Source: a virus
Taxonomy: Duplodnaviria > Caudoviricetes
Virus record (IMG/VR): IMGVR_UViG_3300032309_001984
Location: 1-56,263 of that record
Direction: 5' to 3' (one strand)
DNA length: 56,263 nt
Shown here: piece by piece, positions 1 to 49,543 of the stretch
Position numbering within the stretch: position 1 is the stretch's first letter
How the letters are laid out: the number at the start of each line of letters is the position of its first letter
Made by a program: the position numbers and the translations under genes
Notes under the pieces: model-generated
What the model saw: only the letters and a program-made list of their open reading frames with translations
Database searches by the model: none
Told to the model about the DNA's origin: nothing

Positions 1-50
1 CTCTGGGCAATGGTATACTTGAGTATCACCTATCTGGAGAGGGCTTTGTC

Positions 51-575
51 ATGACCTGTATTGCAGTTGTACGCCATGAAGATAAAATTTACATGGCTGG
101 AGATCGTGGGGCATCAGATGATGGCACCATTCTAGCACTTGAAGCACCAAAGGTTTGGAAGATAGGCCCATACTTAATTGGATATGCTGGATCAATGGAC
201 GGAGAAAGAATCCGTTACAACTTTAAACCAACTGCCCCCAACATTAAAGACACAGATAGGTTTATGCAGACAAGGTTTATTAAAGAACTAAAAGAATTCT
301 ACAATGAGTTTTGGGTTGACACATCAAAAGATGGAGACCTTGGTTTAATTATTGCAGTTCGTGGAAACATCTATGAGCATAGTTCTGCGGACATGTCTTT
401 ATCTAAGTATACACTCCCATACCTTGCTATGGGGTCTGGAGCAGAGTATGCATATGGAGTTTTATATGCAACAGATAAACAAAAAAATGCAAGGAATAGA
501 GTAATCCAAGCAGTAAATGCTGCAATTAAATTTAACCCATCATGCATGGGCCCAGTTGACATCGTCAGTCTATAG
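51..575 (+). CDS. Proteasome beta/HslV-like Ntn-hydrolase peptidase
   Basis: Starts M-T-C-I-A-V (Thr1 after Met removal), then AGD..., PKVWK and AMGSG motifs typical of Ntn threonine proteases; GGAG-like SD upstream. Confidence 0.75.
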   Translation: MTCIAVVRHEDKIYMAGDRGASDDGTILALEAPKVWKIGPYLIGYAGSMDGERIRYNFKPTAPNIKDTDRFMQTRFIKELKEFYNEFWVDTSKDGDLGLIIAVRGNIYEHSSADMSLSKYTLPYLAMGSGAEYAYGVLYATDKQKNARNRVIQAVNAAIKFNPSCMGPVDIVSL

Positions 576-590
576 GAGTATACTTTTAAT

Positions 591-812
591 ATGAGCGAAG
601 AATTTGAAGAGATTCTAAAAGGTATTCAAGCGACTGAATTAGATTATGATGAATTTGAAATCTGGCTAAATAATGGAATTGAGCGTGGATGGATAACAGA
701 GCCTTTCTGTAATACTCATGATGGAGATCCATACATGAGTGATGAAGAGCAAGAAGAGTGGGAGTCTGGCGGAGATCCTTGCCAGGTAGTATTTAAAATA
801 AAGGAGCAGTAA
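591..812 (+). CDS. Hypothetical acidic protein (CNTHDG ... DPC)
   Basis: ORF with leaderless promoter GAGTATACT 6 nt upstream. Confidence 0.7.
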   Translation: MSEEFEEILKGIQATELDYDEFEIWLNNGIERGWITEPFCNTHDGDPYMSDEEQEEWESGGDPCQVVFKIKEQ

Positions 813-817
813 TTTAA

Positions 818-1951
818 ATGTGTATAGTTTGTGTATCTACAGTAACAGTTGCGTCTTTGCTTGCACCAACCCAAGCACCAGTTGAAGTAAAGCCTATTCA
901 AAAAAATATTCAAGAGTATGAGTTTACTAATAAGTCATGCTCTCAGTCTAACTTAAATAAAGTTAAAAACAATACAATATGTTTAAAAAATGGAAAAGTT
1001 TATAGATGGGCTGTAAAAAAATCACCTGTTGTGACACCAACACCAACTCCAACACCAACACCAACGCCCACACCTACACCTAGTGCAAAAACACAACCTG
1101 CAGAAGAAGTTACAACACTTCAAAAAATTTATAAAAAAATTACTGAGCATTACAACAATAAAAGTGATTTCAGACTTACAGTAATCAAAAGTCCTCTTGT
1201 AAATGAAAAAAGAGTATTAGAGATTGTTCAAAAATATGAGACAGCAATAAATGCATACCCTGTTAACACAAATAGAAAAATTACTTGGGTTTTTGTAAGC
1301 GAAGAAGAAAAGCAATGGTATGTAAAAAAATCTTTAGAGATAGATAACTATGACTGGACATCTTGGTGGGATAAGGGTAAATGCTTTATTTCTTCATCTA
1401 CTGTTTGCGCTTATGGAAATTCAGATACTAGAAATCCAATATTTTATATGGTTGTAGGATCAAAGTCTTCTTGGACAGAACAAGATCAAATGAATGCAGA
1501 ACATGAAGCAGCACATATCTATCAAATGATGACATGGTCAAATGGCTACCCATCTTGTTGGGTTGTAGAAGGACAAGCAAATGCATTGGGTATTGCAATG
1601 GCATCTAGATATAAGCAAGTGCTTACAGCAAGAAACGGTCAAATTTTAGAAATGTCAAAGTTTGTTCCAAATTATCAAAAAATGTCTAAAGAGGAATGGA
1701 TTAACCTCTTTAAAAAATATAATAACGACAATGATTCTTGTATAAAAGATTTAGCAGGCTACTCTTTAGGAATGGTGGCTGTAGAGTCTTTGTTTTTAAA
1801 TAGTTCTGCATCAGATGTTGATAAGTTTATAATTAACTACTCACAAACTTTAAATCTTGAAAAATCTTTAAATTCTATTTTAGGCATAACTCTTGATCAG
1901 TTTTATATTAATTTTGCTGACCATATGACTAATGCATTAAAGGGTAGGTAA
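818..1951 (+). CDS. Secreted/surface protein with PT linker and HExxH metallopeptidase-like domain
   Basis: Hydrophobic N-terminus, (PT)n linker at about 1035-1082, HEAAH followed by EGQA. Confidence 0.6.
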   Translation: MCIVCVSTVTVASLLAPTQAPVEVKPIQKNIQEYEFTNKSCSQSNLNKVKNNTICLKNGKVYRWAVKKSPVVTPTPTPTPTPTPTPTPSAKTQPAEEVTTLQKIYKKITEHYNNKSDFRLTVIKSPLVNEKRVLEIVQKYETAINAYPVNTNRKITWVFVSEEEKQWYVKKSLEIDNYDWTSWWDKGKCFISSSTVCAYGNSDTRNPIFYMVVGSKSSWTEQDQMNAEHEAAHIYQMMTWSNGYPSCWVVEGQANALGIAMASRYKQVLTARNGQILEMSKFVPNYQKMSKEEWINLFKKYNNDNDSCIKDLAGYSLGMVAVESLFLNSSASDVDKFIINYSQTLNLEKSLNSILGITLDQFYINFADHMTNALKGR

Positions 1952-1957
1952 TAATTA

Positions 1958-2053
1958 ATGAAAAAAATTAAATCAATTTATCTTGCAGTAAAAAATTATT
2001 TTATTATCAAAAAAATAAAAAAAATACTTAAAAAAAGAAATTTTATTTATTAA
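1958..2053 (+). CDS. Small Lys-rich peptide ending FIY (31 aa)
   Basis: Read by hand: MKKIKSIYLAVKNYFIIKKIKKILKKRNFIY; stop overlaps the next ATG (TAATG). Confidence 0.6.
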   Translation: MKKIKSIYLAVKNYFIIKKIKKILKKRNFIY

Positions 2054-2877
2054 TGAAAAAATTAAAAAATTTTTATATAGTTCCAGACTCTGTATCTGAA
2101 AATAGTTTATCTTTTGACAGTTTGTTTTTAGATATTCCAAAATCAAATATTCCTTTAGATATTGAAAAATGGACAAAACTATTTAAAAAAAATCATTCTG
2201 AAACTTTTATTTCAGAAATTAATAGTCTTGGATTTCGTTCCGATGAATTTAAAACAAAGCATAACGACAAGCATATTCTTTTTTTAGGTTGCTCTTATAC
2301 TTGGGGAACTGGCATGTACCTTGAAGAGGTTTGGTCAAAAATGCTATATGAAAAAATTAAAAAAGAAAGTGGTGCTTCTGGATTTTTTAATCTTGGCGTA
2401 CCAGGAGACTCTATATATTCTTCAGTAACAAACGCTTTTAAATATTTTAAAAATTTTGGTAACCCAGATATTTTATTTTTTAATATACAAGATATAAAAA
2501 GATTTTATGCATACAACAAAGAAGATGATTTTTTTTATAGATCAACAGTTTCAGATAGTCAGGTTTTAGAATTAATGGCTTATCAATATTATTATATGTT
2601 AGAGCAATATTGTGCAGCAAACAAAATTCTTTTAATAGGTTTTACTTGGTGCTTAGGGTATGAAATTCATCCACTGGACAATCTTAAAAGTTTTAGTTAT
2701 CCTAAAATAAAAAATGTTTCAGATTTTGTTTTAAAGTATAAAAATGAAAACTCGAATCAAGAAGAATCTCTTGTCGCAAGAGATGGATCTCATATGGGAA
2801 AGGCTTATCATAAATATTGGTCTGAATATGCATATGCTCAATACAAAAAAACATTAAATGGTATAATAGAAATATGA
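2053..2877 (+). CDS. SGNH/GDSL-like hydrolase-fold protein
   Basis: GFRS, LGCSYTWG (block I), NLGVPG (block II), DGSH (block V). Confidence 0.65.
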   Translation: MKKLKNFYIVPDSVSENSLSFDSLFLDIPKSNIPLDIEKWTKLFKKNHSETFISEINSLGFRSDEFKTKHNDKHILFLGCSYTWGTGMYLEEVWSKMLYEKIKKESGASGFFNLGVPGDSIYSSVTNAFKYFKNFGNPDILFFNIQDIKRFYAYNKEDDFFYRSTVSDSQVLELMAYQYYYMLEQYCAANKILLIGFTWCLGYEIHPLDNLKSFSYPKIKNVSDFVLKYKNENSNQEESLVARDGSHMGKAYHKYWSEYAYAQYKKTLNGIIEI

Positions 2878-2957
2878 TAAAAATTAAATATTATCTTGCA
2901 AAAATTAAAAAATTAATAAAGAAAAAAAATAAAAAATCAAAGGGATTTATTTATTAA
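2874..2957 (+). CDS. Small Lys-rich peptide ending FIY (27 aa)
   Basis: MIKIKYYLAKIKKLIKKKNKKSKGFIY; TGGTATAAT promoter 6 nt upstream; TAATG overlap with the next gene. Confidence 0.6.
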   Translation: MIKIKYYLAKIKKLIKKKNKKSKGFIY

Positions 2958-3886
2958 TGGATATTCTAACTATTTTAACTATGAAAGAGAACACAAGTAG
3001 CCAGTACTCAAAAACAAAAGAAGAGTATGTAGATTTTTTGTTTAAGAACAAACTTGAAACTTTTCAATCTAATAAATCAACAAGAGGCTTTTATAGGGGT
3101 GATGTTCTTGTAGATCAAGAGACTGAATATGAAAACAATTCTTTTGGATATCGTGGTGGTGAATGGTTGGGACAAGCAGATGTGTTAGCGCTAGGATGCT
3201 CAATGACCTATGGAGTTGGTATTCCAATGGATGGAAGTTGGCCAGCAATTTTATCTAAAATTATAAATAAAAATGTAAGAAATTTATCTCAGCCAGGAGC
3301 ATCAATTAATGAGATAGTTGCAAAAGCCTTTAAATATTTTGAAATGTTTGGAAATCCTAAAACAATAGTATGCTTATTCCCAGACCCATACCGAATAACT
3401 ATTTCAAACAATCAAAATTTAATAACCTCTCAAGACAAAGAAGATAGGTTACTTACTACAGTTTTTTTAAATGGTCTTCACGATATTGAAAAACGAGAAA
3501 AATATTTAAAAAAGCCATATTGCTATGAAGATGTTTTACCACAAGAAGTTCCAATATTTTTTTCAACTCAGTATATTCATATGTTAGAACAATATTGCAA
3601 ATCAAATAATATTAATTTGGTATGGTCAACATGGTTTAATGATTTTGGCAAAGCAATAGATTCAGTTGAAGATACAATTTTTAATAATTTTTTTTATAGT
3701 AATGAATTTCCTATTGATTTAAAAGATGTTGAAACTGAATGTCATAAAGAATATGTAAAAGATTTTATAAAATACTTTGATTCAGGGTTAGACATCGAGG
3801 ATAATTATGACTACAGGCACCCTGGAGTTCACAAGCATATACACATTGCAGAAGTATTTTATAATAAAATAAAAGAGATGCTATGA
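2957..3886 (+). CDS. SGNH/GDSL-like hydrolase-fold protein (paralog of 2053-2877)
   Basis: GYRG, LGCSMTYG, NLSQPG, DYRHPG; shares the MLEQYC motif with the upstream paralog. Confidence 0.65.
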   Translation: MDILTILTMKENTSSQYSKTKEEYVDFLFKNKLETFQSNKSTRGFYRGDVLVDQETEYENNSFGYRGGEWLGQADVLALGCSMTYGVGIPMDGSWPAILSKIINKNVRNLSQPGASINEIVAKAFKYFEMFGNPKTIVCLFPDPYRITISNNQNLITSQDKEDRLLTTVFLNGLHDIEKREKYLKKPYCYEDVLPQEVPIFFSTQYIHMLEQYCKSNNINLVWSTWFNDFGKAIDSVEDTIFNNFFYSNEFPIDLKDVETECHKEYVKDFIKYFDSGLDIEDNYDYRHPGVHKHIHIAEVFYNKIKEML

Positions 3887-5313
3887 TAATTTTAGGGGTC
3901 AATGAAACAACCCATGATGCATCTATTTCTTTAATTAAAGATGGAGAGATACTTTTTGCAGGACACGCAGAAAGATACAGTAAGAAAAAAAATGATTGGT
4001 TTACAAACAAAGAACTAATTAAAGATGCATTGCAGTATGGATATCCAGATCAAATTGCATATTACGAAAAGCCTTTGCTCAAAAAACTTAGAATAAATAC
4101 TAGAGGTGGCTTTGGTGGGGGTACACCATGGTTTGAATCCACAGAACTTAGAGACTTACCAAGAAAAAACTTTGGTCATCACTACTCTCATGCAGCAGCA
4201 GGATACTACACAAGCGCATTTAATGATGCCTGTATCGTTGTTTTGGATGCAATTGGTGAGTTTAACACATCAACAATATGGGTTGGTGAGGGCGACAAGA
4301 TTAAACTTAAGTACAAAAAAAATTATCCAGTCAGTTTTGGATTGTTCTATTCTGCATTTACACAACTGGTTGGTCTTATGCCAAACCAAGAAGAATATAT
4401 TATGATGGGTATGGCTGCTTACGGAGATTGGACAAAATATTATAAAAAAGTTGACGAGTATTTTCCAAATTACGATGAGCAAAAATATAATTTTCATAAG
4501 GGAATCACTTACTGGGGATGGGTTTCAGAACAAGATAAGTTTGATATAGCAGCAGCAGTACAAATGGTATACGAGCAAAGGTTAAACCAATTTATGCGTA
4601 TGGCAAAGCATCTTACTGGAAAGAATAATTTAGTATTTATGGGTGGTTGTGCTCTTAATTCTTCAGCCAATACCCTTCTTTGGAATATCTTTAAAGATGT
4701 TTGGATCATGCCAAACCCAGGGGATGCTGGAAGTTCATTGGGTGCTGCAGCAGCATTATACGGTAAGCATATTGACTGGAATACTCCTTATCTTGGTTAT
4801 GATTTAGGTGGTGATTATCCCGTTCAAAAAATTGTTGACGGTATATTAAAAGATGGAATTGTTGCAGTAGCAGCAGGAAGAGCAGAGTATGGACCCAGAG
4901 CATTAGGAAATAGAAGCATTCTTGCAGATCCAAGAGATCCACTAATTAAAGACAAGGTAAATCTAATTAAACAAAGAGAACTATTCAGACCATTTGCTCC
5001 AGTAGTTATGGAAGAGTGTGCCTCTAAATGGTTTGATATGGACTTTACAAGCCCTTACATGCAGTATACAGTCAAGTGCTTACAGCCTGAGAAGATACCA
5101 TCTGTAGTTCATGCTGATGGAACATCAAGGGTACAAACTGTCAATAGAGACCAGCATCGTGGTCTGTATAGGGTTTTAAATAAATTTTATCTTGAAACTG
5201 GTGTTCCAGTATTGCTTAACACTAGTCTTAATATAAAAGGTCAACCACTTCTTAATGATGAGATTGACATTATTAAATGGGAAAAAGAGTATAACTTTAC
5301 AATATTTGGGTAA
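3883..5313 (+). CDS. O-carbamoyltransferase (NodU/CmcH family)
   Basis: HDAS, HHYSHAA, GGCALN, EYGPRALGNRS, RPFAP and LLNTSLN motifs. Confidence 0.95.
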   Translation: MIILGVNETTHDASISLIKDGEILFAGHAERYSKKKNDWFTNKELIKDALQYGYPDQIAYYEKPLLKKLRINTRGGFGGGTPWFESTELRDLPRKNFGHHYSHAAAGYYTSAFNDACIVVLDAIGEFNTSTIWVGEGDKIKLKYKKNYPVSFGLFYSAFTQLVGLMPNQEEYIMMGMAAYGDWTKYYKKVDEYFPNYDEQKYNFHKGITYWGWVSEQDKFDIAAAVQMVYEQRLNQFMRMAKHLTGKNNLVFMGGCALNSSANTLLWNIFKDVWIMPNPGDAGSSLGAAAALYGKHIDWNTPYLGYDLGGDYPVQKIVDGILKDGIVAVAAGRAEYGPRALGNRSILADPRDPLIKDKVNLIKQRELFRPFAPVVMEECASKWFDMDFTSPYMQYTVKCLQPEKIPSVVHADGTSRVQTVNRDQHRGLYRVLNKFYLETGVPVLLNTSLNIKGQPLLNDEIDIIKWEKEYNFTIFG

Positions 5314-5349
5314 GATGGTATAATAGATAAGAGACAAAGGAGGCCAGAT

Positions 5350-6033
5350 ATGGCAGCAAAAGGATCGGTAGAAGCAATCATAGAGGTTGCAAAGAAAGAA
5401 GTGGGCACAATTGAAGGCCCAAAGGATAATGAAACAAAATATGGTGCATGGATTAAGGTAAACTTTCAGCCATGGTGCCAGTCATTCGTTTCTTGGTCAG
5501 CATTTACTGCTGGAGTAAAATCATTTCCAAAGTCTGCATCAACAGTTGCAGCATCAGATTGGTTTAAGAAGGCTGAGCGTTGGTCAGATGCTCGCAATGA
5601 TGATCCACAAGCAGGAGACTGGATCTATTTTGATTTTCCAGATGACGGTGTAAATCGTATTTCACATGTTGGTCTATGCATCAAGAACAATGGAGATGGA
5701 ACCATTCAGGTTATTGAAGGAAATACTTCTGGAACCGCAAAGGGAGATCAAAGAAATGGCGGAATGTGTGTAGAAAAGACTCGTGCTTATGTAAAAAATA
5801 ATAAGAAGAAGTTAGTTAATGCCGTAGTTGGTTGGGGTCGTCCAGTATATACTGGTGAAGAAAATGCTCCACTTTTAAATAAAGTAGCAGCAACAGCAAC
5901 CATAGCATCTCCACCATATTTTCCACCACCATATTTCTCAGCATCATGGGGTGGCGGAGGAACTGCTCCAGCACCGCAAGTAGAAAAGAAAGCACCCGCA
6001 AAGCCTAAAACTAATTCAAAAAAGGCAAAGTAA
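5350..6033 (+). CDS. CHAP-domain amidase (probable endolysin)
   Basis: PWCQSFVSW catalytic Cys, SHVG His, IEGNT; low-complexity tail containing [16 protein letters not shown]. Confidence 0.85.
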   Translation: MAAKGSVEAIIEVAKKEVGTIEGPKDNETKYGAWIKVNFQPWCQSFVSWSAFTAGVKSFPKSASTVAASDWFKKAERWSDARNDDPQAGDWIYFDFPDDGVNRISHVGLCIKNNGDGTIQVIEGNTSGTAKGDQRNGGMCVEKTRAYVKNNKKKLVNAVVGWGRPVYTGEENAPLLNKVAATATIASPPYFPPPYFSASWGGGGTAPAPQVEKKAPAKPKTNSKKAK

Positions 6034-6233
6034 TGGAATCAACAAAAAGAACATTACTAAAAACTGTTAGTTGGGAAACGTTTCATCTAGTTGGAGTTGC
6101 TGGAGTTATCTATCTCTTTACTGGCGAATGGGAATACGCAAGCCTTGGAGCGCTTTTATACATTGGATGGGAAGCACTTGGATACTTTATCCATGAAAGA
6201 GTTTGGGCAAAGTTTGGAAACAAGGTTTCTTAA
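6033..6233 (+). CDS. DUF2061-like small membrane protein
   Basis: RTLLKTVSW ... YFIHERVW signature. Confidence 0.8.
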   Translation: MESTKRTLLKTVSWETFHLVGVAGVIYLFTGEWEYASLGALLYIGWEALGYFIHERVWAKFGNKVS

Positions 6234-6237
6234 TAAT

Positions 6238-6843
6238 ATGAATACTGAGAAAGGGGAAGTCATTAAAAGCATAAACAATAAACTTTTTATAATAGAAGAC
6301 TTCCTCTTTCCAGAAACTTGTGAACTTCTTATTAAAGAGTTTTCAAAAGATTTAAAAAATATTGGAAAGCCTGGAATCTTTGGTGGGCCAGGTGGCGATG
6401 AAAATAAGGACGCAAGGCTGACATCATCTTTAAATAAGATATCAAAGAAGACAGATGATTCTGAGTATAACGTTGCTATTGATTTGTTTACATCAATTTG
6501 TACAAATATTGAAAAAACTGCTTCAATAATATTTAAGAAAGATCTTGTTTTAAGGTCATACTTTTATAGTCATATGAAAGAAGGTGGGAAAAATTCTTTG
6601 CATACAGACAATTACTCTGAAGACTATGCAGAAGATTTTTCAGCAATACTATATCTTTCAGATTCTTATCAGGGTGGATTAATAAGTTTTCCCAAACTAG
6701 AGACAAAATTAAGGCCAAAGCCAGGGACTTTAATTACGTTCATCGGTAATGAAGAGTTAGAGCACGAAGTGGAAGAAGTTTCTGCTGGAGACAGAGTTAA
6801 TATTATATGCTTTTTAAATGAAAGGAGAAATCATGAGAATTAA
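6238..6843 (+). CDS. 2OG-Fe(II) oxygenase (prolyl-hydroxylase-like)
   Basis: HTD, YLSDSYQGG, HEV...R; start moved to ATG 6238. Confidence 0.85.
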   Translation: MNTEKGEVIKSINNKLFIIEDFLFPETCELLIKEFSKDLKNIGKPGIFGGPGGDENKDARLTSSLNKISKKTDDSEYNVAIDLFTSICTNIEKTASIIFKKDLVLRSYFYSHMKEGGKNSLHTDNYSEDYAEDFSAILYLSDSYQGGLISFPKLETKLRPKPGTLITFIGNEELEHEVEEVSAGDRVNIICFLNERRNHEN

Positions 6844-6940
6844 AATAATTAGATTTGTTGTTAAAGCCCTAGGATATGAATGGGGCGGAGATTTGCTTAA
6901 TGCACCAATTTGGACAGTTAAAGAAAAGAAAAAGAAGTAA
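6833..6940 (+). CDS. Small hypothetical protein (35 aa)
   Basis: AAGGAG SD; MRIKIIRFVVKALGYEWGG...; stop overlaps the next ATG. Confidence 0.55.
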   Translation: MRIKIIRFVVKALGYEWGGDLLNAPIWTVKEKKKK

Positions 6941-7122
6941 TGGCTATTTATGAATATAATTGCAATCAGTGCAATGATAATTTTATTAAGCAAAGATCTA
7001 TTTCAGAGGATGATCCAGGGTATAAGTGTGAAACTTGCAATTCAGATCTAACTCGTGTATACTCTAATATAGGAGCAGTTTTCAACGGTAGTGGATTTTA
7101 TTCCACTGATAACAGAAAGTAG
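6940..7122 (+). CDS. FmdB-family zinc-ribbon protein
   Basis: MAIYEYNCNQC ... CETC ... FNGSGFYSTD. Confidence 0.85.
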   Translation: MAIYEYNCNQCNDNFIKQRSISEDDPGYKCETCNSDLTRVYSNIGAVFNGSGFYSTDNRK

Positions 7123-7131
7123 TAGTATACT

Positions 7132-7389
7132 ATGAAGACAATGATTGATAATCCAGTAATAGAAAAAGAATGGACCCTTAGCCCTAAAGATCGGTGTGAC
7201 TCTTGTGCAGCAGAGGCTTTGGTTCAGGTTAATGGAATTTCTGGAGATTTAATGTTTTGTGGACACCACTATAATAAGATTATGGATAGTGCTGAAGGAT
7301 ATAAAAAGATGATGTCTTTTGCACTTACAATCATTGACGAAAGAGAAAAATTGATTCAAAATAAAATAAAGGATAAAGACTATGTATGA
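7132..7389 (+). CDS. Hypothetical Zn-binding protein (DRCDSC ... LMFCGHH)
   Basis: Cys/His pattern seen in small actinobacterial/actinophage proteins. Confidence 0.65.
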   Translation: MKTMIDNPVIEKEWTLSPKDRCDSCAAEALVQVNGISGDLMFCGHHYNKIMDSAEGYKKMMSFALTIIDEREKLIQNKIKDKDYV

Positions 7390-7789
7390 GTATTATGTAA
7401 GAAAAGTAGAGAACGTAGTAGATGGAGACACCATTGATGTTCTTATTGATTTAGGGTTTGATATTCTTTTTGCATCTCGTGTTAGACTGGCTGGTATTGA
7501 TACCCCTGAATCTCGCACAAAGGATCTTGCTGAGAAGGCTCTTGGTCTTGAAGCCAAAGAGTACCTAAAGAAGTCTCTAAAGGATGCCAAGTCTGTTGTA
7601 ATTAAGACTGAGAAGATGGACTCATCTGAAAAGTATGGTCGCATTTTAGGCTGGGTATATGTAGATGGTAACACAGTATCCCTTAATGATATGATGATTA
7701 ATGATGGGTATGCTTGGGGTTATCTTGGAGACACAAAGGTAAAAGATTTTACAGCACTTGCAAAGGCTAGAAAGAAGTCTGGAAAGTGA
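7382..7789 (+). CDS. Thermonuclease (SNase-like)
   Basis: VVDGDT, RLAGIDTPE, KYGRILG. Confidence 0.9.
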   Translation: MYEYYVRKVENVVDGDTIDVLIDLGFDILFASRVRLAGIDTPESRTKDLAEKALGLEAKEYLKKSLKDAKSVVIKTEKMDSSEKYGRILGWVYVDGNTVSLNDMMINDGYAWGYLGDTKVKDFTALAKARKKSGK

Positions 7790-8037
7790 GACATGTCCTA
7801 TACTTTACTGCAGACTGGTGTAACCCATGCAAAAGAACAAAACCTTTTGCAGATGAACTTGTGTCTGAAGGCGAGAACATTAAATTTATTGATGCTGACT
7901 CTGAGCCAGATATGATTAAAAATTTTAAAGTTTTAAGCGTTCCAACATTTATTTTAATTGAAAATGAATCTGAAATTAAAAGAATGAATGGTGCAAAAAC
8001 AAAAGAAGAACTGTACAGGTTCATCCATGAAGAATGA
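7786..8037 (+). CDS. Thioredoxin
   Basis: WCNPC active site, cis-Pro motif SVPTF. Confidence 0.9.
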   Translation: MRHVLYFTADWCNPCKRTKPFADELVSEGENIKFIDADSEPDMIKNFKVLSVPTFILIENESEIKRMNGAKTKEELYRFIHEE

Positions 8038-8221
8038 GATATCTGATATGATCCTTGATGGAAGCCTTGAGTTTGCTGGAGTAGACGATAAGTCTGGAGA
8101 AATTGTTTATAGTTTTCCTAAAGAAAATTCATTGATAGATTCTGAAGATAGTCAAAGTTATTTTTTTTATGATCAAGTAAAAGAGTTTATTGTAAATAAA
8201 GATAACAAAGAAAAGGAATAA
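8027..8221 (+). CDS. Hypothetical protein (short paralog of 10322-10651)
   Basis: ILDGSLEFAGVDDKSGE resembles ILNGGLEFAGIDKETG. Confidence 0.55.
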   Translation: MKNEISDMILDGSLEFAGVDDKSGEIVYSFPKENSLIDSEDSQSYFFYDQVKEFIVNKDNKEKE

Positions 8222-8222
8222 A

Positions 8223-8843
8223 ATGAAAAGAAACATACTTGAAAAAAATATTTACTACTATGAAAATGCAGTAAAAGATCCAGACATTCTTATTCAAAAT
8301 ATAGAAAAACTAGATGAATTCTTAACAGAAAAAACTGGGATATCTAAATGGACTGATTGGACTGCGTATCAGTCTGACTATTCTTTTGGAAAGCAAAAAA
8401 TGATAAGAACAGAGTTTTTTAACTTAAACAATGATATAGATAAAGAATGCAAAAAAATATATCAAACACTTTATGATGCTATAGAGTCTGTTTCAAAAGA
8501 CTACGAGTCTATGCACCCAGGCTTAGATATTGGAATGCTTTGCCCAATGTCAATAAGTAAATATTTTGTTGGCAGTATGATGGGCCCACATGTAGATTGT
8601 CATGATGATGATAAAGGAAAGACAATATCTGTTGTATTGTATCTAAATGATGATTACACTGGAGGAGAGTTAAACTTTAAAAATCAGGAAATTAAGATTA
8701 AGCCATCTGCTGGAAGCATTGCAGTTTTCCCATCAAGGTCTCCATATTTTCATGAATCGCTGCCAGTTTTAAGTGGAGAAAAATATATGACTCCAGGATT
8801 TTGGGAAAATAGAGATATTTATCAAACAATACTTGCAGATTAA
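8223..8843 (+). CDS. 2OG-Fe(II) oxygenase (prolyl 4-hydroxylase-like)
   Basis: HVD, YLNDDYTGGE, HESLPVLSGEKY. Confidence 0.9.
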   Translation: MKRNILEKNIYYYENAVKDPDILIQNIEKLDEFLTEKTGISKWTDWTAYQSDYSFGKQKMIRTEFFNLNNDIDKECKKIYQTLYDAIESVSKDYESMHPGLDIGMLCPMSISKYFVGSMMGPHVDCHDDDKGKTISVVLYLNDDYTGGELNFKNQEIKIKPSAGSIAVFPSRSPYFHESLPVLSGEKYMTPGFWENRDIYQTILAD

Positions 8844-8885
8844 TTGCTTTACTGGTATACTTATTTATAAAGTCTGGAGATAGTT

Positions 8886-9095
8886 ATGTGGTCATGGATA
8901 TTAGCAGTAATTGGTGTAACTGGAATTTTCTTTGTTGGTCGCAAGACCATATGGGGATGGTTTGTTTTACTATTTAATGAATGTCTTTGGATTGCGTATG
9001 CATTAATAACAGATCAATATGGTTTTATTTTTTCTGCATTGGCATATGCAGCAGTATATATTAAATCGTACATACATTGGAAGAGGGAAGAATGA
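8886..9095 (+). CDS. Small membrane protein, PnuC-like
   Basis: Three hydrophobic helices with WGW and W..Y pattern. Confidence 0.55.
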   Translation: MWSWILAVIGVTGIFFVGRKTIWGWFVLLFNECLWIAYALITDQYGFIFSALAYAAVYIKSYIHWKREE

Positions 9096-9853
9096 TTATA
9101 CAAATTATTGGATTGCCAGGATCTGGAAAAACAGAACTTGCAAAGGCACTAAAAGAACGAATTAACGCTATTCATCTTAACGCAGATGAGGTTCGTGCAA
9201 CAGTCAATTCAGATTTAGGGTTTACACCAGAAGATAGACTTGAGCAGGCTCGTCGTATGGGTGAGATGGCTCGCCTAATTGCTAAGCAAGGCGTTGCTCC
9301 AGTAATCGTGGATTTTGTATGTCCAACAGATCTAACTCGTGTAGCATTTGGTAAGCCAGATATTTTGGTATTTATGGACACCATTGCAGAAGGTCGCTTT
9401 GAAGACACTAACAAGATGTTTGAACGACCAACAGAGTTTGATGTATCATTCATTAGCCATAACTTAGATGCAGAAGCAAAAGCATCTCACATTATTAATA
9501 AGTTTAGTCTTCATGATTGGTCTGCACCTACAACACTTATGCTGGGTAGGTACCAGCCATGGCATGAAGGACACCATGCCCTTTACAAAGAGGCAGGGAA
9601 GAGAACAGAGCAAGTACTACTGGGAGTCCGTAATACATACAACACAAGCGAAAAGGACCCACTTACTTTTGATCAGGTAAAGGGTTATATTGCTAAAGAT
9701 GACTTCATGGATGGTGCATTAGTACTAAGACTTCCTAACATTACTAACATTGTTTATGGTCGTGATGTAGGATACAAGATTGAGCAAGTGGACTTGGGGG
9801 CAGACATTCATGCTATTTCGGCTACTGAAAAACGCAAGCAAATGGGTATTTAA
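9092..9853 (+). CDS. Adenylylsulfate kinase-like domain fused to an HxGH nucleotidyltransferase domain
   Basis: GLPGSGKT P-loop and NADEVR; C-terminal GRYQPWHEGH and ISAT. Confidence 0.8.
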   Translation: MIIQIIGLPGSGKTELAKALKERINAIHLNADEVRATVNSDLGFTPEDRLEQARRMGEMARLIAKQGVAPVIVDFVCPTDLTRVAFGKPDILVFMDTIAEGRFEDTNKMFERPTEFDVSFISHNLDAEAKASHIINKFSLHDWSAPTTLMLGRYQPWHEGHHALYKEAGKRTEQVLLGVRNTYNTSEKDPLTFDQVKGYIAKDDFMDGALVLRLPNITNIVYGRDVGYKIEQVDLGADIHAISATEKRKQMGI

Positions 9854-9918
9854 TTACTTAGAAGAGTCTGGTCGCCTAATGAACGAAGCAGAAGAGCGAC
9901 TAATGTTTGGGGACAAAG

Positions 9919-10122
9919 ATGAGCGTAAAGAAAAGTAGATCATTTGTTAAGTCTTTAACATGGAGAGTTGTCGCAATGGTTTCAGGGTTTGTAACTCTTT
10001 ATGCTTTGAGCGAAGATATTAGTCTGGCTACTGTTGCTACACTAATAACCAATGGGGTTAACTTTGTGGCATACTATTATCATGAAAGAATTTGGAATGC
10101 TGTTGGGTGGGGCAAAGAATGA
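9919..10122 (+). CDS. DUF2061-like membrane protein
   Basis: RSFVKSLTWR ... YYHERIW. Confidence 0.8.
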   Translation: MSVKKSRSFVKSLTWRVVAMVSGFVTLYALSEDISLATVATLITNGVNFVAYYYHERIWNAVGWGKE

Positions 10123-10322
10123 CAGTAACCAAGGCTAGATCATTTGCTAAGGCATTAAGTTATCGCATATGGGGAACACTTTCTTCCTTTGTAGTAGCAT
10201 ATGTTATAACAAGAAGCGCAAGTCTATCAGGGGCTATTGCCTTTTGGGAAACGGTAGTTAAAGTATTTATCTACTATGCACATGAGCGTGGATGGAATAA
10301 AGTTAAATGGGGAAGAAAGTGA
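10119..10322 (+). CDS. DUF2061-like membrane protein
   Basis: RSFAKALSYR ... YYAHERGW. Confidence 0.8.
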   Translation: MTVTKARSFAKALSYRIWGTLSSFVVAYVITRSASLSGAIAFWETVVKVFIYYAHERGWNKVKWGRK

Positions 10323-10651
10323 TGGATGAGTTTGACATAGTCGATAGGCTTATTCTTAATGGTGGTCTAGAATTTGCTGGAATAGACAAAGAAACAGGCC
10401 AAGGTCTGTATAGACCAACAGAAAAACTAAAAGATATAGATCCTAACCTTAGTAGCGAAATGTCTATTTACTTTTCTGAAACTACAATGAAATTGTGGGA
10501 AAAAGGCTTTATTGATATGGATGTAACTTCTGAAGATCCATTAGTAAAACTTGCCCCAAGATCTTTTAATGTATCAGATATAAAAACCCTTGATGCCAAC
10601 GAAAGAGTTATTTTGGAAGAAATTATTAGAGTTCTTTCTGGTAAAAAGTGA
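10322..10651 (+). CDS. Hypothetical protein
   Basis: ORF translationally coupled to the upstream gene. Confidence 0.7.
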   Translation: MDEFDIVDRLILNGGLEFAGIDKETGQGLYRPTEKLKDIDPNLSSEMSIYFSETTMKLWEKGFIDMDVTSEDPLVKLAPRSFNVSDIKTLDANERVILEEIIRVLSGKK

Positions 10652-10666
10652 TACAATTGTATAGAG

Positions 10667-11095
10667 GTGATTATTTTGAATAATATCTATGGAGCCATAC
10701 TTGCTACACTTTTATCGATATCTCTTCTAATTATATACTTAATGATTCAAAACAACAAAAATAAAAAAAATACAAATATTATAAGTCAATCAATGTTGCA
10801 CTATAGGTATAATTATTCAAAAAAATATTCAAGAAAACTAAAGACAAAAAGACAGTCTATAAATCAGTATAATGAAAATAATGTAAAAGTTATTATTCTT
10901 GACAATGAGGCTTATTGGATCAAAGGAAATGTTTTTTATAAAGCGCCAATTGTAAACAATAGCATAGATAAAGATAGTACACAGCAAGTTGACACAATAA
11001 GTATGGATAGGGTACAATTAGATAAGATGCTTTTTATAATGGATAAACTAAGAGAAGGGGCAAGCGATGATCATAGGAGTTCAGGGGACGAGTAG
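10667..11095 (+). CDS. Hypothetical membrane-anchored protein
   Basis: N-terminal TM helix; TGATACAAT promoter upstream. Confidence 0.65.
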   Translation: MIILNNIYGAILATLLSISLLIIYLMIQNNKNKKNTNIISQSMLHYRYNYSKKYSRKLKTKRQSINQYNENNVKVIILDNEAYWIKGNVFYKAPIVNNSIDKDSTQQVDTISMDRVQLDKMLFIMDKLREGASDDHRSSGDE

Positions 11096-11417
11096 TTTTG
11101 AAAACTATAACATATTCCTTAGAGCAATGGCTGTTGCGCTTTCTGAGTTATTAGACGAAGACAAAGAGTTTTACATATACTCTGCTGGGCCAAATAACAT
11201 TAACATGATGGCTATGGAGTTTTCAAATTTATCAGAAAGAGGAATGAAGTCTCGTGGAAAAACAATAAAACTTTTTAAGGTTACTCCACAATGGCTAGAA
11301 GAAAATGTTAAAAGTTTAAATCATTTTGCATTTTTATCTAATCCAAAAGAAAGTGTTTCAAAGATTGTACATATATCAAAACTAAATAACATTAATACAA
11401 ATGTTTATACATTTTAA
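11067..11417 (+). CDS. Hypothetical protein (possibly SLOG/YspA-like)
   Basis: MIIGVQGTSSF..Y start resembles YspA-like folds; weak. Confidence 0.55.
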   Translation: MIIGVQGTSSFENYNIFLRAMAVALSELLDEDKEFYIYSAGPNNINMMAMEFSNLSERGMKSRGKTIKLFKVTPQWLEENVKSLNHFAFLSNPKESVSKIVHISKLNNINTNVYTF

Positions 11418-11463
11418 TAAATAGCAACTAACTACGGTTGCTAACAAATAGAACGGAAAAACA

Positions 11464-11676
11464 ATGAAAATAATTAATTCTTTAGATACTATGGAATCAA
11501 TAGTAAAGAATAATCGTCAACTGTCTTGGAATGGCTGGACTGTGGTTGAAACCTTTCCATCAGAAAAAGCATTTTACTCAAAGTTTGGCATATATAAAAA
11601 CAATAAGTGGCAAATGAAAAAAGAATTTGTTCCTTCAAGTCAAGGGTGGGAAATTCCAGATAAGTATGTGATCTAG
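11464..11676 (+). CDS. Hypothetical protein
   Basis: ORF in a co-oriented gene run. Confidence 0.65.
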   Translation: MKIINSLDTMESIVKNNRQLSWNGWTVVETFPSEKAFYSKFGIYKNNKWQMKKEFVPSSQGWEIPDKYVI

Positions 11677-11958
11677 ATGAATAAATATAAATGGAAAGAC
11701 AAAGCAGTATGTTTAGACTACGACACAAATCTATTTTTTGAAAAGTATGAAGATGATGAACTTCTTAGGCCTGCAATAGATGCGCTATGCTCTTCTTGTT
11801 CAGTAAGAAAAGAGTGTTTTTCTGTTGGAATTTCTGGAAAAGAGTGGGGAGTTTGGGGTGGTGTATACTTAGAAAATGGAGAAATATCTAAAGAGTTTTC
11901 AAGTCACAAGAGCAAGAATGACTGGGGATTAACTTGGCAGTCATTAACGATGGAGTAA
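11677..11958 (+). CDS. whiB: WhiB-family Fe-S transcription factor
   Basis: W...A.C ... C..C.V..EC ... GVWGG. Confidence 0.9.
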   Translation: MNKYKWKDKAVCLDYDTNLFFEKYEDDELLRPAIDALCSSCSVRKECFSVGISGKEWGVWGGVYLENGEISKEFSSHKSKNDWGLTWQSLTME

Positions 11959-11959
11959 T

Positions 11960-12199
11960 ATGTATACTGATGCAATGAAACGTGCTTTTAGATCTATTCA
12001 TTGTCCCAAAAATTTTTCTTTAGAAATAGTTGACAATGATAATTTTATTACTGTTAAAGCAAAGGAAAAAGTTTTTATGTCACTTGAAACGGTGGAGTTA
12101 AAAAGACAGGCTATAGAGTATATGATTCGTGTCAAAAAAGCACTAGAGGATAATGGTGCAATTGTTCTTTTAGTAAGAGAAGGTGGGAAAGAATTATGA
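11960..12199 (+). CDS. Hypothetical protein
   Basis: GGAG SD, coupled ORF. Confidence 0.7.
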   Translation: MYTDAMKRAFRSIHCPKNFSLEIVDNDNFITVKAKEKVFMSLETVELKRQAIEYMIRVKKALEDNGAIVLLVREGGKEL

Positions 12200-12594
12200 T
12201 TGAGTCAGTCTTAGTGGGAGTACTTTCATTCTCTACATTGTTTTTTTTGTTATTATATATGATACAAATAAAAAAGAATCGTGCAATTCTTGCAAACACC
12301 ATAAGGCTTTTACTGATGCAAGACTCTATGAATGGCGAAAACAAAACAGATAAAGAAAAAGCAGATGAAGCATTTTTAAAATTTGTTTCAGATTCTAGAG
12401 ATTGGGCATATTCTTATATTGATTCTGTTCAGGAAGAGATTAATAGTTTTATTACTATTGTAGGTCCAGACATAGAATACCTTGAGGCATATAAACCACC
12501 AATTATTTCGGAAGAAGCCACAAATAGGCTTTTTGTTGGGTATAAAAAAATAAAGGCTCTGTTGCCAGACGACTATGGTAAAATAGATACATGA
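12196..12594 (+). CDS. Hypothetical membrane-anchored protein
   Basis: N-terminal TM helix. Confidence 0.65.
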   Translation: MIESVLVGVLSFSTLFFLLLYMIQIKKNRAILANTIRLLLMQDSMNGENKTDKEKADEAFLKFVSDSRDWAYSYIDSVQEEINSFITIVGPDIEYLEAYKPPIISEEATNRLFVGYKKIKALLPDDYGKIDT

Positions 12595-12910: not shown

Positions 12911-12920
12911 GAGGAATAAA

Positions 12921-13193: not shown

Positions 13194-13205
13194 ACAATTA
13201 GATTA

Positions 13206-13236: not shown

Positions 13237-13282
13237 CTATGCTATAATATTTATACCTGCCCAAATTTGGGGGGTATATAAC

Positions 13283-13305: not shown

Positions 13306-13306
13306 C

Positions 13307-46238: not shown

Positions 46239-47930
46239 GTGGCAGAAGAGAATATTGACAATACCGTTAGTGGTAGTGGGCTCTTTAATACCAAAATTCC
46301 AGGTCTCGGAGACGCAGCCGACATTCAGGCAGCGCTCAGACTTTATCATTATGGATCATATACTTATGATGGTGCAAATACTAATACAGCAAGTCTTGTA
46401 AACCCATCAATTGCAAAGCACCTTCAAAACCTTGTAGATGCCGATGCTGCAGAAGTAATAAACAGAAATGCAGCAATTGCAGTAGAAACAACAAACAGAA
46501 ATGCAGCAATTACAGCCCACAATGCAACAACATTAAATGTTCATGGTATAGCAAATACAGCACTTCTTACAACAAAAAGTTATGTAGATACAGCAGATTC
46601 AACTTTACAAACACAAATAAATACTCTTTCTTCAACCATTGGACTTCAAACAACACTAATATCTAAAAATTCTAGTTTTACGCTAGAGGCTACAGATGCT
46701 GGTAAAACTATATTGCTTGATACGTCTTCTTCTATGAATTTAACTATCCCAACAAATTTATCGGTGTCAATTCCTGTTGGGTATCAATATTTTGTCATAG
46801 AGGCAGGATCTGGAAGAACAACATTTACACCAGCAGCAGGAGTAACGCTAAATAGTAAAAATTCACAAATGTATATTGACACACAGTATGGTAAAGCAAC
46901 ACTTTTGAAAGTTGCAACAAATTCTTGGATTATCTATGGAGATATTTATGAAAATGTCTCTACACCAACACCAGTTTTCCCAACACCTACACCTGTAGCA
47001 CCAGTGGCACCTACACCTGTACACGTAGATCCAGCACCTACACCAGTTGCCCCTACACCAGTCGCACCTACACCCGTAGCACCAGTCGCACCTACACCAG
47101 TTGCCCCTACACCCGTAGCACCAGTCGCACCTACACCAGTAGCACCAGTCGCACCTACACCAGTAGCACCAGTCGCACCTACACCAGTCGCACCAGTCGC
47201 ACCTACACCCGTAGCACCAGTCGCACCAGTCGCACCAGTTGCACCCGTTGCTCCAACATCAACACCTTACTTCCCACCTCCATACTTCTCATCACTATGG
47301 GGCGGAGGACCTACAGCACCCGTAGCACCTGTTGCTCCTACACCAACCCCACCACCTTACTTCCCACCACCTTATTTCTCTGCTAACTGGGGTGGAGGAC
47401 CTACACCTGTTGCTCCCGTAGCACCTACACCTACACCCGTAGCACCAGTCGCACCTACACCTACACCAGTTGCACCTGTAGCACCCGTTGCGCCAGTCGC
47501 ACCTGTTGCTCCTGTTGCTCCAACATCAACACCTTACTTCCCACCACCTTATTTCTCTGCTAACTGGGGCGGAGGACCTACACCTACACCTGTTGCTCCC
47601 GTAGCACCTACACCTACGCCCGTTGCTCCCGTAGCACCTACACCTACACCCGTAGCACCAGTCGCACCTACACCTACACCTGTTGCACCTGTTGCACCAA
47701 CAGCACCAAATCCATTTTTCCCACCATTCTTCCCACCAGCATTCCCGTTCTTCCCACCGTTCTTCCCACCATCATTCCCGTTCTTCCCACCAACATTTGG
47801 AGGACCAGCCCCTGTTGCTCCAACAGCACCACCATTCTTCCCACCTTACTTCCCACCACCATATTTCTCTGCTAACTGGGGTGGAAGAGTGAATCCAGAT
47901 ATTATTGATCAAACAAAAAATAAGGCATAA
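46239..47930 (+). CDS. Tail-associated protein with extensin/AGP-like Pro-rich C-terminal half
   Basis: Fibre-like N-terminal 240 aa, then about 310 aa of PVAP/PTP repeats, four [14 protein letters not shown] copies and an FFPP block. Confidence 0.8.
46962..47886 (+). repeat. Coding tandem repeats (PVAPVAPT units and [12 protein letters not shown] units)
   Basis: Repeated CCAGTCGCACCTACA-type units. Confidence 0.9.
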
Positions 47931-47931
47931 A

Positions 47932-48519
47932 ATGAAAAAAGCATACATGCTAAATAATGTATTAGAAATTCATGAATTAAAAAATTTACAAAACTATGCA
48001 TTGCACATGTGGGCAAATGATAAGAGCACGTATAGTGAAGCATTTGGAAGGCACCAATGGACAGTGTGGGGTGAAAATATTCCAGAACACATGAAGCCTT
48101 TACAAAGATTTCATGATATGCTTTTGCCACTTGCAAAAAAAGAATTTGAATCTGAAACTTTAAAACCATCTTGGTGTCTTTTAAGTATTTATGAAGGAGA
48201 AAAAGCAAATTTGTGGAAGCATGTAGATGATAATGCTTGTACATATCATATAAATCTTACAGTTTTTCATAAAACTGCCTGGGATTTTTATGTAGAAGGA
48301 GAAAAGTTTAGTCCACAAGAAAATGATGCAGTTATATCTTATGGAAATGATCAAGAGCATTGGAGAGAAGATTTTACAGATCCAGAGCATAACCTAGTTG
48401 TTAATGCATTTTTCTTTTATTGTGAACCAGATCATTGGTATTTTACAGAAGGCCCAAACTATTTATTTAATACAATTAGAAAAAAAGAAGATCCAAATAA
48501 AGACATTATGAGCATGTAA
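47932..48519 (+). CDS. 2OG-Fe(II) oxygenase (phage type)
   Basis: L.KHVDDNAC, YG....HWRE, FF.Y. Confidence 0.75.
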   Translation: MKKAYMLNNVLEIHELKNLQNYALHMWANDKSTYSEAFGRHQWTVWGENIPEHMKPLQRFHDMLLPLAKKEFESETLKPSWCLLSIYEGEKANLWKHVDDNACTYHINLTVFHKTAWDFYVEGEKFSPQENDAVISYGNDQEHWREDFTDPEHNLVVNAFFFYCEPDHWYFTEGPNYLFNTIRKKEDPNKDIMSM

Positions 48520-48520: not shown

Positions 48521-49543
48521 ATGAAAAAGATTTTTTTTCAACTTTATAACCCATGCGGATTATTTAATCAGGTAACAAGCATTGAGTTAGGAGTAGGATT
48601 GTCAACAATAACTGGAAGGCAAATGGTTTGGCACAATATAAACAATCCACCAGATGGAAACTATGGCCACAAAAGAGTTCCAATATATTCTGCAAATTAT
48701 CAATTTAATAATAGAAGCGAAAAGGTTGATACAAATGTTTTTCCAAAAATAACAGATTTCCTTAATTGGAAAAATAAAGAAAATGAAATCTTTATTGATG
48801 ATACTGTAGAGGTATTTTCTTCAGAAACTCAAAATATTAAAAATTTAATGACATATTATTATTCAAAAGAAGAAGATAGCGATTTTTCTGAAGGAAGAGA
48901 GTTGTTTAATCTTGACGAAAATAAAGACTGGGACATAAGGAAAACGCTTGGGTACTACAGTAGATTTTTTAATAATAGAACAAAAGATTTAGACTCTTCT
49001 CTTTCTTCTGTAAGATTTAAAGAGGAATATTATCAACTATCAGAAAATATTGCAAAATCACTTGGAGATTTTAATGGCGCACACTTAAGATTAGCAGACC
49101 ATAAGCCAATGATCAATATATCTTCAAACTCTTTTAGCGAAGGTCTTTCAAGTTTAAATAAAGAAAGGTTAATTGTTTTATCAACAGATGAACCAAAAAG
49201 CGATGTCATAAAAAATTCTGATTATAGAGTTCTTTTGCTTGATAGATATATATTAAAAAATTTTTATAAAGAATTTAGAGATTTGCCTTTTAAAGAAGAA
49301 GTTTCTTTTGGAATAATAAATAATCTTGTTTTGCATCATAGTAAAGATTTTATTGGAACACCTGGAAGTACATATACAGGTTATATTCATAGGAATATAA
49401 ATCAAAAAACAGAAATTGGGTTTAAATTGTTTGAAGAAAAAAATCATCAGCCAACTGGTAAATATTCTTGGAATGGTTATAATAATAAAGATAGTTTTAC
49501 AAAGCAGTGGTGGAGAGAGTGGAAAGAGTCAAAATATGCATAG
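48521..49543 (+). CDS. O-fucosyltransferase-like (GT-B) glycosyltransferase
   Basis: GLFNQ, AHLRLAD, LSTDE, FIGTPGSTYT. Confidence 0.75.
   Translation: MKKIFFQLYNPCGLFNQVTSIELGVGLSTITGRQMVWHNINNPPDGNYGHKRVPIYSANYQFNNRSEKVDTNVFPKITDFLNWKNKENEIFIDDTVEVFSSETQNIKNLMTYYYSKEEDSDFSEGRELFNLDENKDWDIRKTLGYYSRFFNNRTKDLDSSLSSVRFKEEYYQLSENIAKSLGDFNGAHLRLADHKPMINISSNSFSEGLSSLNKERLIVLSTDEPKSDVIKNSDYRVLLLDRYILKNFYKEFRDLPFKEEVSFGIINNLVLHHSKDFIGTPGSTYTGYIHRNINQKTEIGFKLFEEKNHQPTGKYSWNGYNNKDSFTKQWWREWKESKYA

Follow-up and report, generated by a model that had tools for sequence, protein, structure and literature searches.

A proline-aromatic peptide shared by the CHAP endolysin and a tail-fibre-like protein of a predicted freshwater actinobacteriophage, and its possible role in envelope binding

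Two unrelated proteins predicted from a 56,263-nucleotide (nt) stretch of viral DNA, hereafter the window, carry the same 14-residue, cysteine-free peptide built largely of prolines and aromatic residues: a CHAP-domain endolysin contains it once in its C-terminal tail, and a tail-fibre-like protein encoded ~41 kb away contains it four times. The window is the complete IMG/VR virus record IMGVR_UViG_3300032309_001984 (36.7% G+C; estimated to be ~52% complete). We document here the motif and its copies, its portability among phage proteins, the constraint on its sequence, its insertion into the lysin and its rarity there. Arguing from position and by analogy, and with a confidence somewhat short of even, we propose that the motif is a shuffled envelope-binding bead common to fibre and lysin, which would target both proteins to the host cell envelope.

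The lysin gene lies at 5350..6033 (+ strand) and encodes 227 residues, of which Pfam, PHROG and homologue comparisons assign 1-178 to a conserved catalytic part and the remainder to a hypervariable C-terminal tail. Its CHAP domain (PF05257) scores 41.7 bits against a cut-off of 26 over residues 40-125, the protein matches PHROG endolysin families at E 1e-23, and across 42 sequences H106 never varies and C43 is kept in at least 90%; we assign the product as a predicted CHAP-domain endolysin. The family is large: the protein collection has 1705 homologues of it and viral contigs carry at least 598 loci, and the relatives inspected were the best 120 of the former and the best 80 of the latter. 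Across the best 120 homologues the CHAP core is 77-97% identical, and the sequences turn unrelated directly past a conserved APLLNK; the best 80 viral-contig lysins have 66 distinct tails. Many tails in relatives carry PG_binding_1 (PF01471), many others are short and Lys-rich, ending in ...KKSSGGGGKGxVAL, and some bear other duplicated cassettes. In the window this slot is filled by a hypervariable Lys-rich tail (residues 179-227; 5884..6030, +), delimited by comparison with homologue tails and by contig divergence, contigs from other sequencing runs parting from the window sequence at 5873-5907. At E up to 0.01, the window lysin matched no Pfam family besides CHAP and NlpC/P60, and no known cell-wall-binding family (PG_binding_1, LysM or SH3b) was found at its C-terminus, where relatives do have PF01471. 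AlphaFold2 returned a poor, uninformative model of the lysin from a 42-sequence alignment (mean predicted local distance difference test score, pLDDT, 42.7; tail ~30), in which the tail has no secondary structure.

Within this tail, the motif sits in a 17-residue cassette (lysin residues 188-204; 5911..5961, +) that forms an insertion of ~50-60 nt relative to the lysin tail of G001, a complete relative. The initial annotation, made from the DNA letters and their translations, had reported a peptide common to the endolysin and the tail protein, and this was confirmed by translation and by a six-frame regular-expression scan, in which aromatic-proline motifs were confined to two open reading frames of the window (one in the lysin and seven in the tail protein; the reversed-pattern control gave 0 matches). 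BLASTP of the two proteins against each other aligned the motif at E 2e-8 and 3e-7, and nothing else was significant. Homologue alignment, which the same annotation had recommended, revealed the motif as an insertion: the G001 lysin is 95% identical over residues 1-189, has an ordinary Lys-rich tail, and leaves a gap at the motif in the DNA alignment.

The junction also withstood the check for an assembly chimera that the initial annotation had called for. A second protein, P0121, is encoded on a different contig, with a lysin tail 96% identical to that of the window and further differences inside its CHAP part; relative to the window it carries I185T and A186V in the flanks and an unchanged motif. 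The insertion is furthermore bridged by a 1575-bp contig of run X1, which may be the source sample, spanning 5614-6400, and by a 336-bp contig of run X5, from a separate study, spanning 5766-6101 with 17 differences to the window. Among the X5 differences listed, those at 5955 and 5961 within the motif are synonymous (codons read by hand), and those at 5906, 5965/5967 and 5971 alter residues. No joints were reported in the contig layout over 5300-6400 in the four runs whose Logan contigs were aligned there, all labelled lake water or freshwater metagenomes. Summed contig depth was much greater over the CHAP part than past 5892, a measure that cannot rank gene parts or give frequencies, and only bridging contigs and loose ends were used. 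A chimera is excluded by P0121, by the bridging contigs and by the absence of reported joints.

We then compared the copies at the DNA level. The lysin copy is identical to the four tail-gene copies at 31-33/42 nt, whilst tail copies 2-4 are identical among themselves at 40-41/42, and the synonymous codon differences previously noted between the lysin and its own tail gene are therefore real. They had been read as an argument against a recent DNA copy, which does not hold, because a tail-gene copy of G001 matches the lysin motif core at 25/26 nt and allows transfer from a related phage. No extended flanking homology between the lysin insertion and any tail gene was seen, the similarity being confined to 20-28 nt. 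The lysin copy is a single insertion by recombination in a minor sublineage, and a rare variant among lysins.

The second motif protein (563 residues; 46239..47930, +) combines a conserved N-terminal domain (~1-240) with a Pro-rich, "beads-on-a-string" extension, as judged by PHROG, tblastn, orthologues and neighbouring genes. Residues ~90-240 match two PHROG families, the minor tail protein family phrog_8780 (E 2.6e-14) and the tail fibre family phrog_16053 (E 1.1e-7), minor tail proteins of Gordonia phages are 32-37% identical to residues 98-236 by tblastn, and collagen-like fibre genes flank the gene, one of them, upstream, with CBM_5_12. The product is, on these matches, a predicted phage tail fibre or minor tail protein. 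Past residue ~240 it becomes a Pro-rich string (PTPVAPVAP...), and its four motif copies fit PYFPPPYFS(SL/AN)WGG. By regular-expression scan and translation, these copies lie at 47265..47306, 47355..47396, 47532..47573 and 47844..47885 (all +); the first two starts agree with those initially annotated, and the other two had been given as 47533 and 47845. The fourth copy is C-terminal and is followed by RVNP..., a WG(G)RVNP ending also found in the fibronectin type III (FN3) domain protein of relatives. A degenerate relative of the motif, the FFPP block (47712..47804, +), was recognised by the same scan and by ortholog alignment, in which it is conserved.

Orthologues of the N-terminal domain occur at 68 viral loci (46-81% identity), 64 of which encode proteins of more than 300 residues (51 distinct sequences, the window's own protein not being among the 64). 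In these orthologues the extension alternates PT, PVA or T-rich linkers with small Cys-rich modules, with 4-42 Cys per extension; the only Cys-free extensions among the 64 belong to the 2 full-motif loci (G001 and G002), and the window's own protein is likewise Cys-free. FFPP-like motifs are also present in 11 orthologous loci. One orthologue (L034) carries a PASTA domain amid its beads at residues 341-393 (28.6 bits against a cut-off of 23.2), and L073 contains a stretch that by eye resembles it. In four motif-type orthologues the columns of the motif and the FFPP block are invariant and the linker lengths vary. Prediction of a three-copy complex of tail-protein residues 425-563 scored 0.00, with an uncertain partner fold, and speaks neither for nor against association, and a search of the ESM Atlas with residues 335-563 gave no usable match. 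A by-eye impression of a Hint/intein-like C-terminus in L026 found no Pfam support and was dropped.

Several relatives end differently. In L025, L022, L124, L149 and L180 the last motif copy runs straight into SDYRLK[DN]DI.EY..., which weakly resembles the start of a Peptidase_S74 intramolecular chaperone and which we take to be like the endosialidase-type intramolecular chaperone signature. Residues 659-684 of L025 align weakly with positions 1-25 of the 58 in PF13884 (Peptidase_S74), at E 0.17 and 12.6 bits against a cut-off of 22. This ending suggests possible self-cleavage just past the WG of the motif in these relatives; the tail protein of the window ends without an S74-like segment.

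Beyond the window, the full motif (PYFPPPYF-[ST]-x-x-W-G-[G], 14 residues) is present in at least five protein contexts of this phage clade. DNA scans of viral and metagenome contigs found it in tail-fibre orthologues (G001, G002, L133, L124 and L180), at the C-terminus of an FN3-domain protein (L019 in G001, L021, L122, L153 and L140; fn3 E 1e-9 to 1e-13), in a 695-residue multidomain protein (L022) and in L149. It also occurs twice in an 85-residue, Lys-rich, stand-alone mini-protein encoded between a fibre gene and an oxygenase-like gene (L171, 3403-3660, -), whose kin are P0128 (94% identical) and P0129. The earlier suggestion of a portable tag in unrelated proteins is thus borne out and extended.

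To evaluate constraint, we assembled 30 clade copies, all of which differ at the DNA level. The search pattern dictated positions 0-7, which are therefore given no weight; past them, [ST] is kept in 30/30, W in 30/30, G in 29/30 and the next G in 22/30, the Ser being coded by TCN as well as AGC. In P0129, as compared with the L171 mini-protein, the N-terminus, flanks and inter-motif linker have diverged, with both motifs retained. Among genomes of 185,579 prokaryote species, one each, DNA coding exactly for PYFPPPYF occurs in 31 stretches, mostly short frames in scattered taxa; none of these (0/31) continues with [ST]xxW, as all 30 clade copies do, which further excludes chance. The pattern of conservation thus argues that selection acts at the level of the peptide, as initially proposed, on the strength of the 30-copy set and the mini-protein comparison and not of the codon differences within the window.

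An HMMER profile of the three mini-proteins, searched against 1.84 billion representatives, retrieved only P0128 itself and P0130; this library is clustered at 50%, and motif-less representatives in it may hide motif-bearing fibres. P0130 (repeat-rich, 1262 residues, E 1e-4) has no visible motif and was regarded as spurious. Separately, we observed a small family (L137, L158, L160, L165, L167, L169, L176, L190, L017 and L020) with long (F/Y)FPP runs and a Cys-rich end, ...VVTYSCESCGVFADGLCQGPGLCIS, so that aromatic-proline runs are also found fused to Cys-knot ends.

The motif is not the only module common to lysins and fibres. When all lysin tails were compared by BLAST with all fibre extensions, two clear results emerged, the present motif and a second module, found in the lysin P0010. 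The tail of P0010 contains one CPSLGRNVPTSGFPENCPG loop (a Cys-loop, CPSLGxNVPxSGxPxNCPG), and a fibre protein at L047 (4001-5881) contains four such loops (E 4e-11 to 2e-8, with 80% identity across 25 residues); the module also occurs in L077. Here the lysin comes from one relative and the fibre from another phage. The pattern of one copy in a lysin and four in a fibre is therefore not unique to the motif, and both cases are rare. None of the best 80 of at least 598 viral-contig lysin tails matched any fibre extension at E up to 1e-4. An apparent similarity of the P0055/P0056 tails to a module of L023 was not accepted (E 0.004, small database).

The probable host bears on what the motif could bind. 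A WhiB-family gene (11692-11865, +; PF02467, 42.6 bits, above the cut-off) has a counterpart in G001, and among 14 control genomes PF02467 matched Corynebacterium only; whiB is treated as an actinophage indicator in PMC10202952. By this phage-encoded WhiB-like regulator, the window phage is predicted to be an actinobacteriophage. The CHAP and tail domains have their nearest kin among proteins of Streptomyces and Gordonia phages and, taken with WhiB, this kinship makes a host wall of Gram-positive type likely. Megablast of window positions 1-20000 against the phage collection gave zero matches, indicating that there is no close cultured relative. The related genomes G001, G003 and G004 reach up to 118-119 kb with terminal repeats present, and the motif-bearing clade is one of abundant freshwater, whiB-encoding actinobacterial phages.

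Lysins acting on hosts with a Gram-positive-type wall typically require targeting modules. The motif is native to the hypervariable, outward-facing C-terminal extension of the tail-fibre-like protein, where it recurs as a bead between Pro-rich linkers, and recombination has put one copy into the Lys-rich tail of the lysin, in the slot that PG_binding_1 occupies in many relatives. We suggest that it would most likely adhere to wall glycan or peptidoglycan: its aromatic residues would stack on sugars, the neighbouring lysines would touch anionic polymers of the wall, and fibre and lysin would thereby be directed to the same surface. Envelope binding is suggested because the bead slots of orthologues otherwise hold Cys-knots or PASTA, because the lysin slot otherwise holds PG_binding_1, and by the adjacent poly-lysine and the probably exposed actinobacterial wall; motif and Lys-rich stretch are paired in lysin tail and mini-protein alike. 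Among the functions put forward in the initial annotation, binding to the cell envelope fits best by this analogy.

A number of observations weigh against this proposal. The case for envelope binding is one of position and analogy, and one 14-residue copy would hardly fold by itself. The motif is also rare in lysins: among the best 120 of 1705 homologues the window's protein is the sole bearer, none of the 6 other members of its 90% cluster and none of the best 80 of at least 598 viral-contig lysins has it, and a region search with residues 182-227 across 5.8 billion clusters returned P0001 and P0121 only. At this rarity, its presence in the lysin may be a neutral accident. Nor is there obligate coupling, since G001 has the motif in its fibre and not in its lysin, and in six other records with both genes (of 30 searched) the lysin tails are all plain Lys-rich, although as a paired test of lysin tails against fibre modules this set is uninformative. 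The expectation that a lysin bears the motif only where the tail protein does is satisfied in its single testable case, the window, and its converse fails in G001. Neither Pfam nor the ESM Atlas holds a family or cluster that describes the motif, and YFPPPYF and FFPPFFPP are absent from the open-access PubMed Central and bioRxiv papers searched, in nine of which PYFPPP appears, for human AP-2, WWOX and KCTD and for cytomegalovirus proteins. Finally, prolyl-hydroxylase-like genes adjoin both motif genes, and modification may matter more than binding by the peptide as such.

These genes were characterised further. Two genes past the lysin, 6238..6843 (+) encodes a predicted 2-oxoglutarate (2OG)-Fe(II) oxygenase of a prolyl-hydroxylase-type Pfam family (PF13640, 42.1 bits), with weak sequence matches to prolyl hydroxylases in the PDB (E 0.03-0.4). 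Directly after the tail-protein gene, the product of 47932..48519 (+) has no Pfam match by sequence, and its AlphaFold2 model is confident (pLDDT 84.6): among the 43 PDB matches listed, every one is a prolyl hydroxylase (template modelling score 0.53-0.62, E 3e-8 to 6e-7), the best being PHD2, the vCPH of Paramecium bursaria chlorella virus 1 (PBCV-1; 5c5t/5c5u) and a Pseudomonas prolyl 4-hydroxylase. H97, D99 and H143 are invariant in 17/17 sequences, and the modelled fold, a double-stranded beta-helix, identifies the product as a probable prolyl-hydroxylase-like 2OG oxygenase with an HxD...H triad. Given this fold, its PHROG label of "ferrochelatase" (phrog_2954, E 1.6e-10) looks wrong. The next gene, 48521..49543 (+), encodes a putative O-FucT-like glycosyltransferase (PF10250, E 0.0023, below the cut-off). 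Sugar and modification genes surround both motif genes (3883-5313 and 48521-51210), with a carbamoyltransferase before the lysin and the O-FucT-like gene, an FkbM methyltransferase and an NAD-dependent epimerase/dehydratase after the fibre gene; their placement suggests modification of the virion or of host glycans.

It is this neighbourhood that recommends an alternative, compatible with a binding role, in which the motif or the Pro-rich tails are substrates of the phage oxygenases and glycosyltransferase, acquiring hydroxyproline and possibly glycans in an extensin-like manner, such that binding or stability would depend on the modification. The initial annotation had likewise suggested a signal for the oxygenase or glycosyltransferase, and it was right as to the neighbouring genes, one of which has the prolyl-hydroxylase-like fold. 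The PBCV-1 enzyme among the fold matches is a viral collagen prolyl hydroxylase; its substrates are of the Pro-Ala-Pro-Lys type, which the lysin tails resemble. Specificity for the motif, on the other hand, did not emerge. An oxygenase-like gene accompanies 33/64 orthologous loci, counts being limited by 4-kb flanks, and 31 of these 33 lack the full motif; the enzyme is still present at 29 of the 53 loci that have no FFPP-like motif; and the motif-less lysin of G001 keeps its oxygenase neighbour in the same order of carbamoyltransferase, lysin, DUF2061 gene and oxygenase. The O-FucT-like and oxygenase-like genes occur together in 29/64 loci. If the oxygenases act on fibre or lysin tail, the universal Pro-rich linkers would be the likelier targets, and we hold modification of this kind to be unlikely as the main explanation. 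An elaboration is less probable again: in a phage "extensin-like" adhesive system, two prolyl-hydroxylase-like enzymes and the sugar genes would turn beads and Pro-Lys tails into hydroxyproline-glycosylated, polyproline-II wall-binding peptides, and the matured tag would be interchangeable on fibres, decoration proteins, mini-protein and endolysin, tuning adsorption and lysis to one host-surface ligand. We consider it improbable.

Other explanations concern the lysin copy or the fibre itself. The motif could be functional in fibres and its lysin copy a by-product of illegitimate recombination with no role there. The variability of lysin tails, high even inside the 90% cluster, the rarity of the motif tail, the 20-28 nt of similarity without extended flanking homology and the core identity with the G001 tail-gene copy, which fits a fairly recent DNA transfer, would all accord with a neutral passenger. 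Set against this, the variant persists with divergence in independent assemblies, P0121 differing in the flanks and not in the motif and the listed X5 differences being synonymous within the motif and residue-changing outside it, a second unrelated module has the same one-to-four sharing, and the motif-plus-lysine layout recurs in the mini-protein. We regard the passenger explanation as unlikely overall, though with a somewhat better claim than modification. A structural role is more doubtful than either: an aromatic-proline element, for example trimeric or of polyproline-II type, might stiffen or cap fibres or dock and cross-link proteins, with the lysin copy tethering the enzyme to virions or to motif proteins. 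Several fibre-like proteins do end in the motif, preceded by long FFPP runs, some relatives follow it with the S74-chaperone-like segment (below the cut-off), and the positions of the FFPP block are conserved across orthologues; however, the internal copies are set apart by long, length-variable linkers, which fits independent beads better, the lysin and the 85-residue protein have only one or two copies, and the lysin belongs to a lysis cassette ~41 kb from the fibre genes. Last, the superficial likeness of the WGG(G) ending to double-glycine sites, together with the two-copy mini-protein of a relative, raises the idea of a core of the kind found in ribosomally synthesised and post-translationally modified peptides, released at the Gly-Gly. 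The motif hosts, however, are a 227-residue enzyme and a 563-residue structural protein, and of the two families searched, Peptidase_C39 (PF03412) and Radical_SAM (PF04055), neither was found in the window or complete G001 (0/2 records each), whilst control genomes matched. Such a peptide core, or the assembly chimera already dealt with, is highly improbable, and the former suggestion is rejected.

The locus is an instance of the known mosaicism of receptor-binding proteins and endolysins. Such domain mosaicism is documented by Smug et al. 2023 (PMC10684548), and Oechslin et al. 2022 (PMC9371310) is a further paper on the subject; the sections covered of PMC6115969 held nothing relevant on sharing between lysins and receptor-binding proteins. 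As in these systems, exchangeable host-facing parts are attached to a conserved part that is catalytic or anchoring, near-identical CHAP cores and fibre N-domains being followed by unrelated tails and extensions. Unlike them, the unit here is a 14-residue linear motif (in the P0010 case, a Cys loop of ~20 residues) and not a recognised folded domain, and it is shared by a lysin and a fibre of the same genome, at one copy against four. What is new is this Cys-free, proline-aromatic unit common to lysin and fibre within one genome.

Other systems share individual features. Modular Gram-positive endolysins with a C-terminal binding domain (PG_binding_1) have the same architecture and position, many close relatives having PF01471 at the motif site, whereas the window tail is of ~49 residues, Lys-rich, without a Pfam match and modelled, poorly, without structure. 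In actinobacterial glycoside hydrolases, carbohydrate-binding modules are strung on Pro/Thr linkers as beads on a string. The fibres resemble these in their PT/PVA linkers between small repeated modules and in the presence of CBM_5_12 and PASTA in the fibre set or orthologues, and differ in that the bead is a Cys-free aromatic-proline peptide whose carbohydrate binding is only putative; it is, to our knowledge, much smaller than any known family of carbohydrate-binding modules. With the PBCV-1 prolyl 4-hydroxylase (5c5t/5c5u) the window shares a virus-encoded prolyl-hydroxylase-like enzyme beside Pro-rich repeat proteins, and with plant extensins a composition of Ser, Pro runs and Tyr, but it has no SPPPP repeats and no YxY, and the enzyme also lies beside motif-less fibres. 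Virion proteins of mycobacteriophages carry glycosylated C-terminal extensions. The likeness here is that of an actinophage with glycosyltransferase-like genes beside structural genes with Ser/Thr/Pro-rich extensions; the motif, however, is poor in Ser and Thr, the glycosyltransferase-like gene falls below the Pfam cut-off and its action on the fibre is putative.

Should the motif prove to be a minimal tag for envelope binding, it would rank with the smallest targeting modules yet known in phage lysins and fibres, and fluorescent fusions to it could fish for the hosts of abundant uncultured freshwater actinophages. Lysin targeting and receptor recognition would then draw on one shared pool of mini-modules per genome. 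The adjacent prolyl-hydroxylase-like genes make hydroxylation of prolines in phage structural proteins open to test. Even were the lysin copy neutral, the locus would still document rapid tail exchange, with near-identical catalytic cores and dozens of tails.

Further features of the window were recorded. Directly 3' of the lysin, 6033..6233 (+) encodes a small DUF2061 membrane protein (Pfam DUF2061, 43.5 bits; the synteny is the same in G001), and where the window has one such gene after the lysin, G001 has two (L008, 1046-1446); these proteins are possible candidate holins. Six tRNA genes (Arg-tct, Asn, Ile-tat, Gly-tcc, Met and Asp), five of them clustered, lie at 18066-19289 and 31359-31433 (-). 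Among lysin relatives, P0041, P0042, P0056, P0070 and P0079 have tails with internally duplicated cassettes of ~9-23 residues, such as a Q/G/H/Y/P-rich or a T/N/L/E-rich unit, each present twice.

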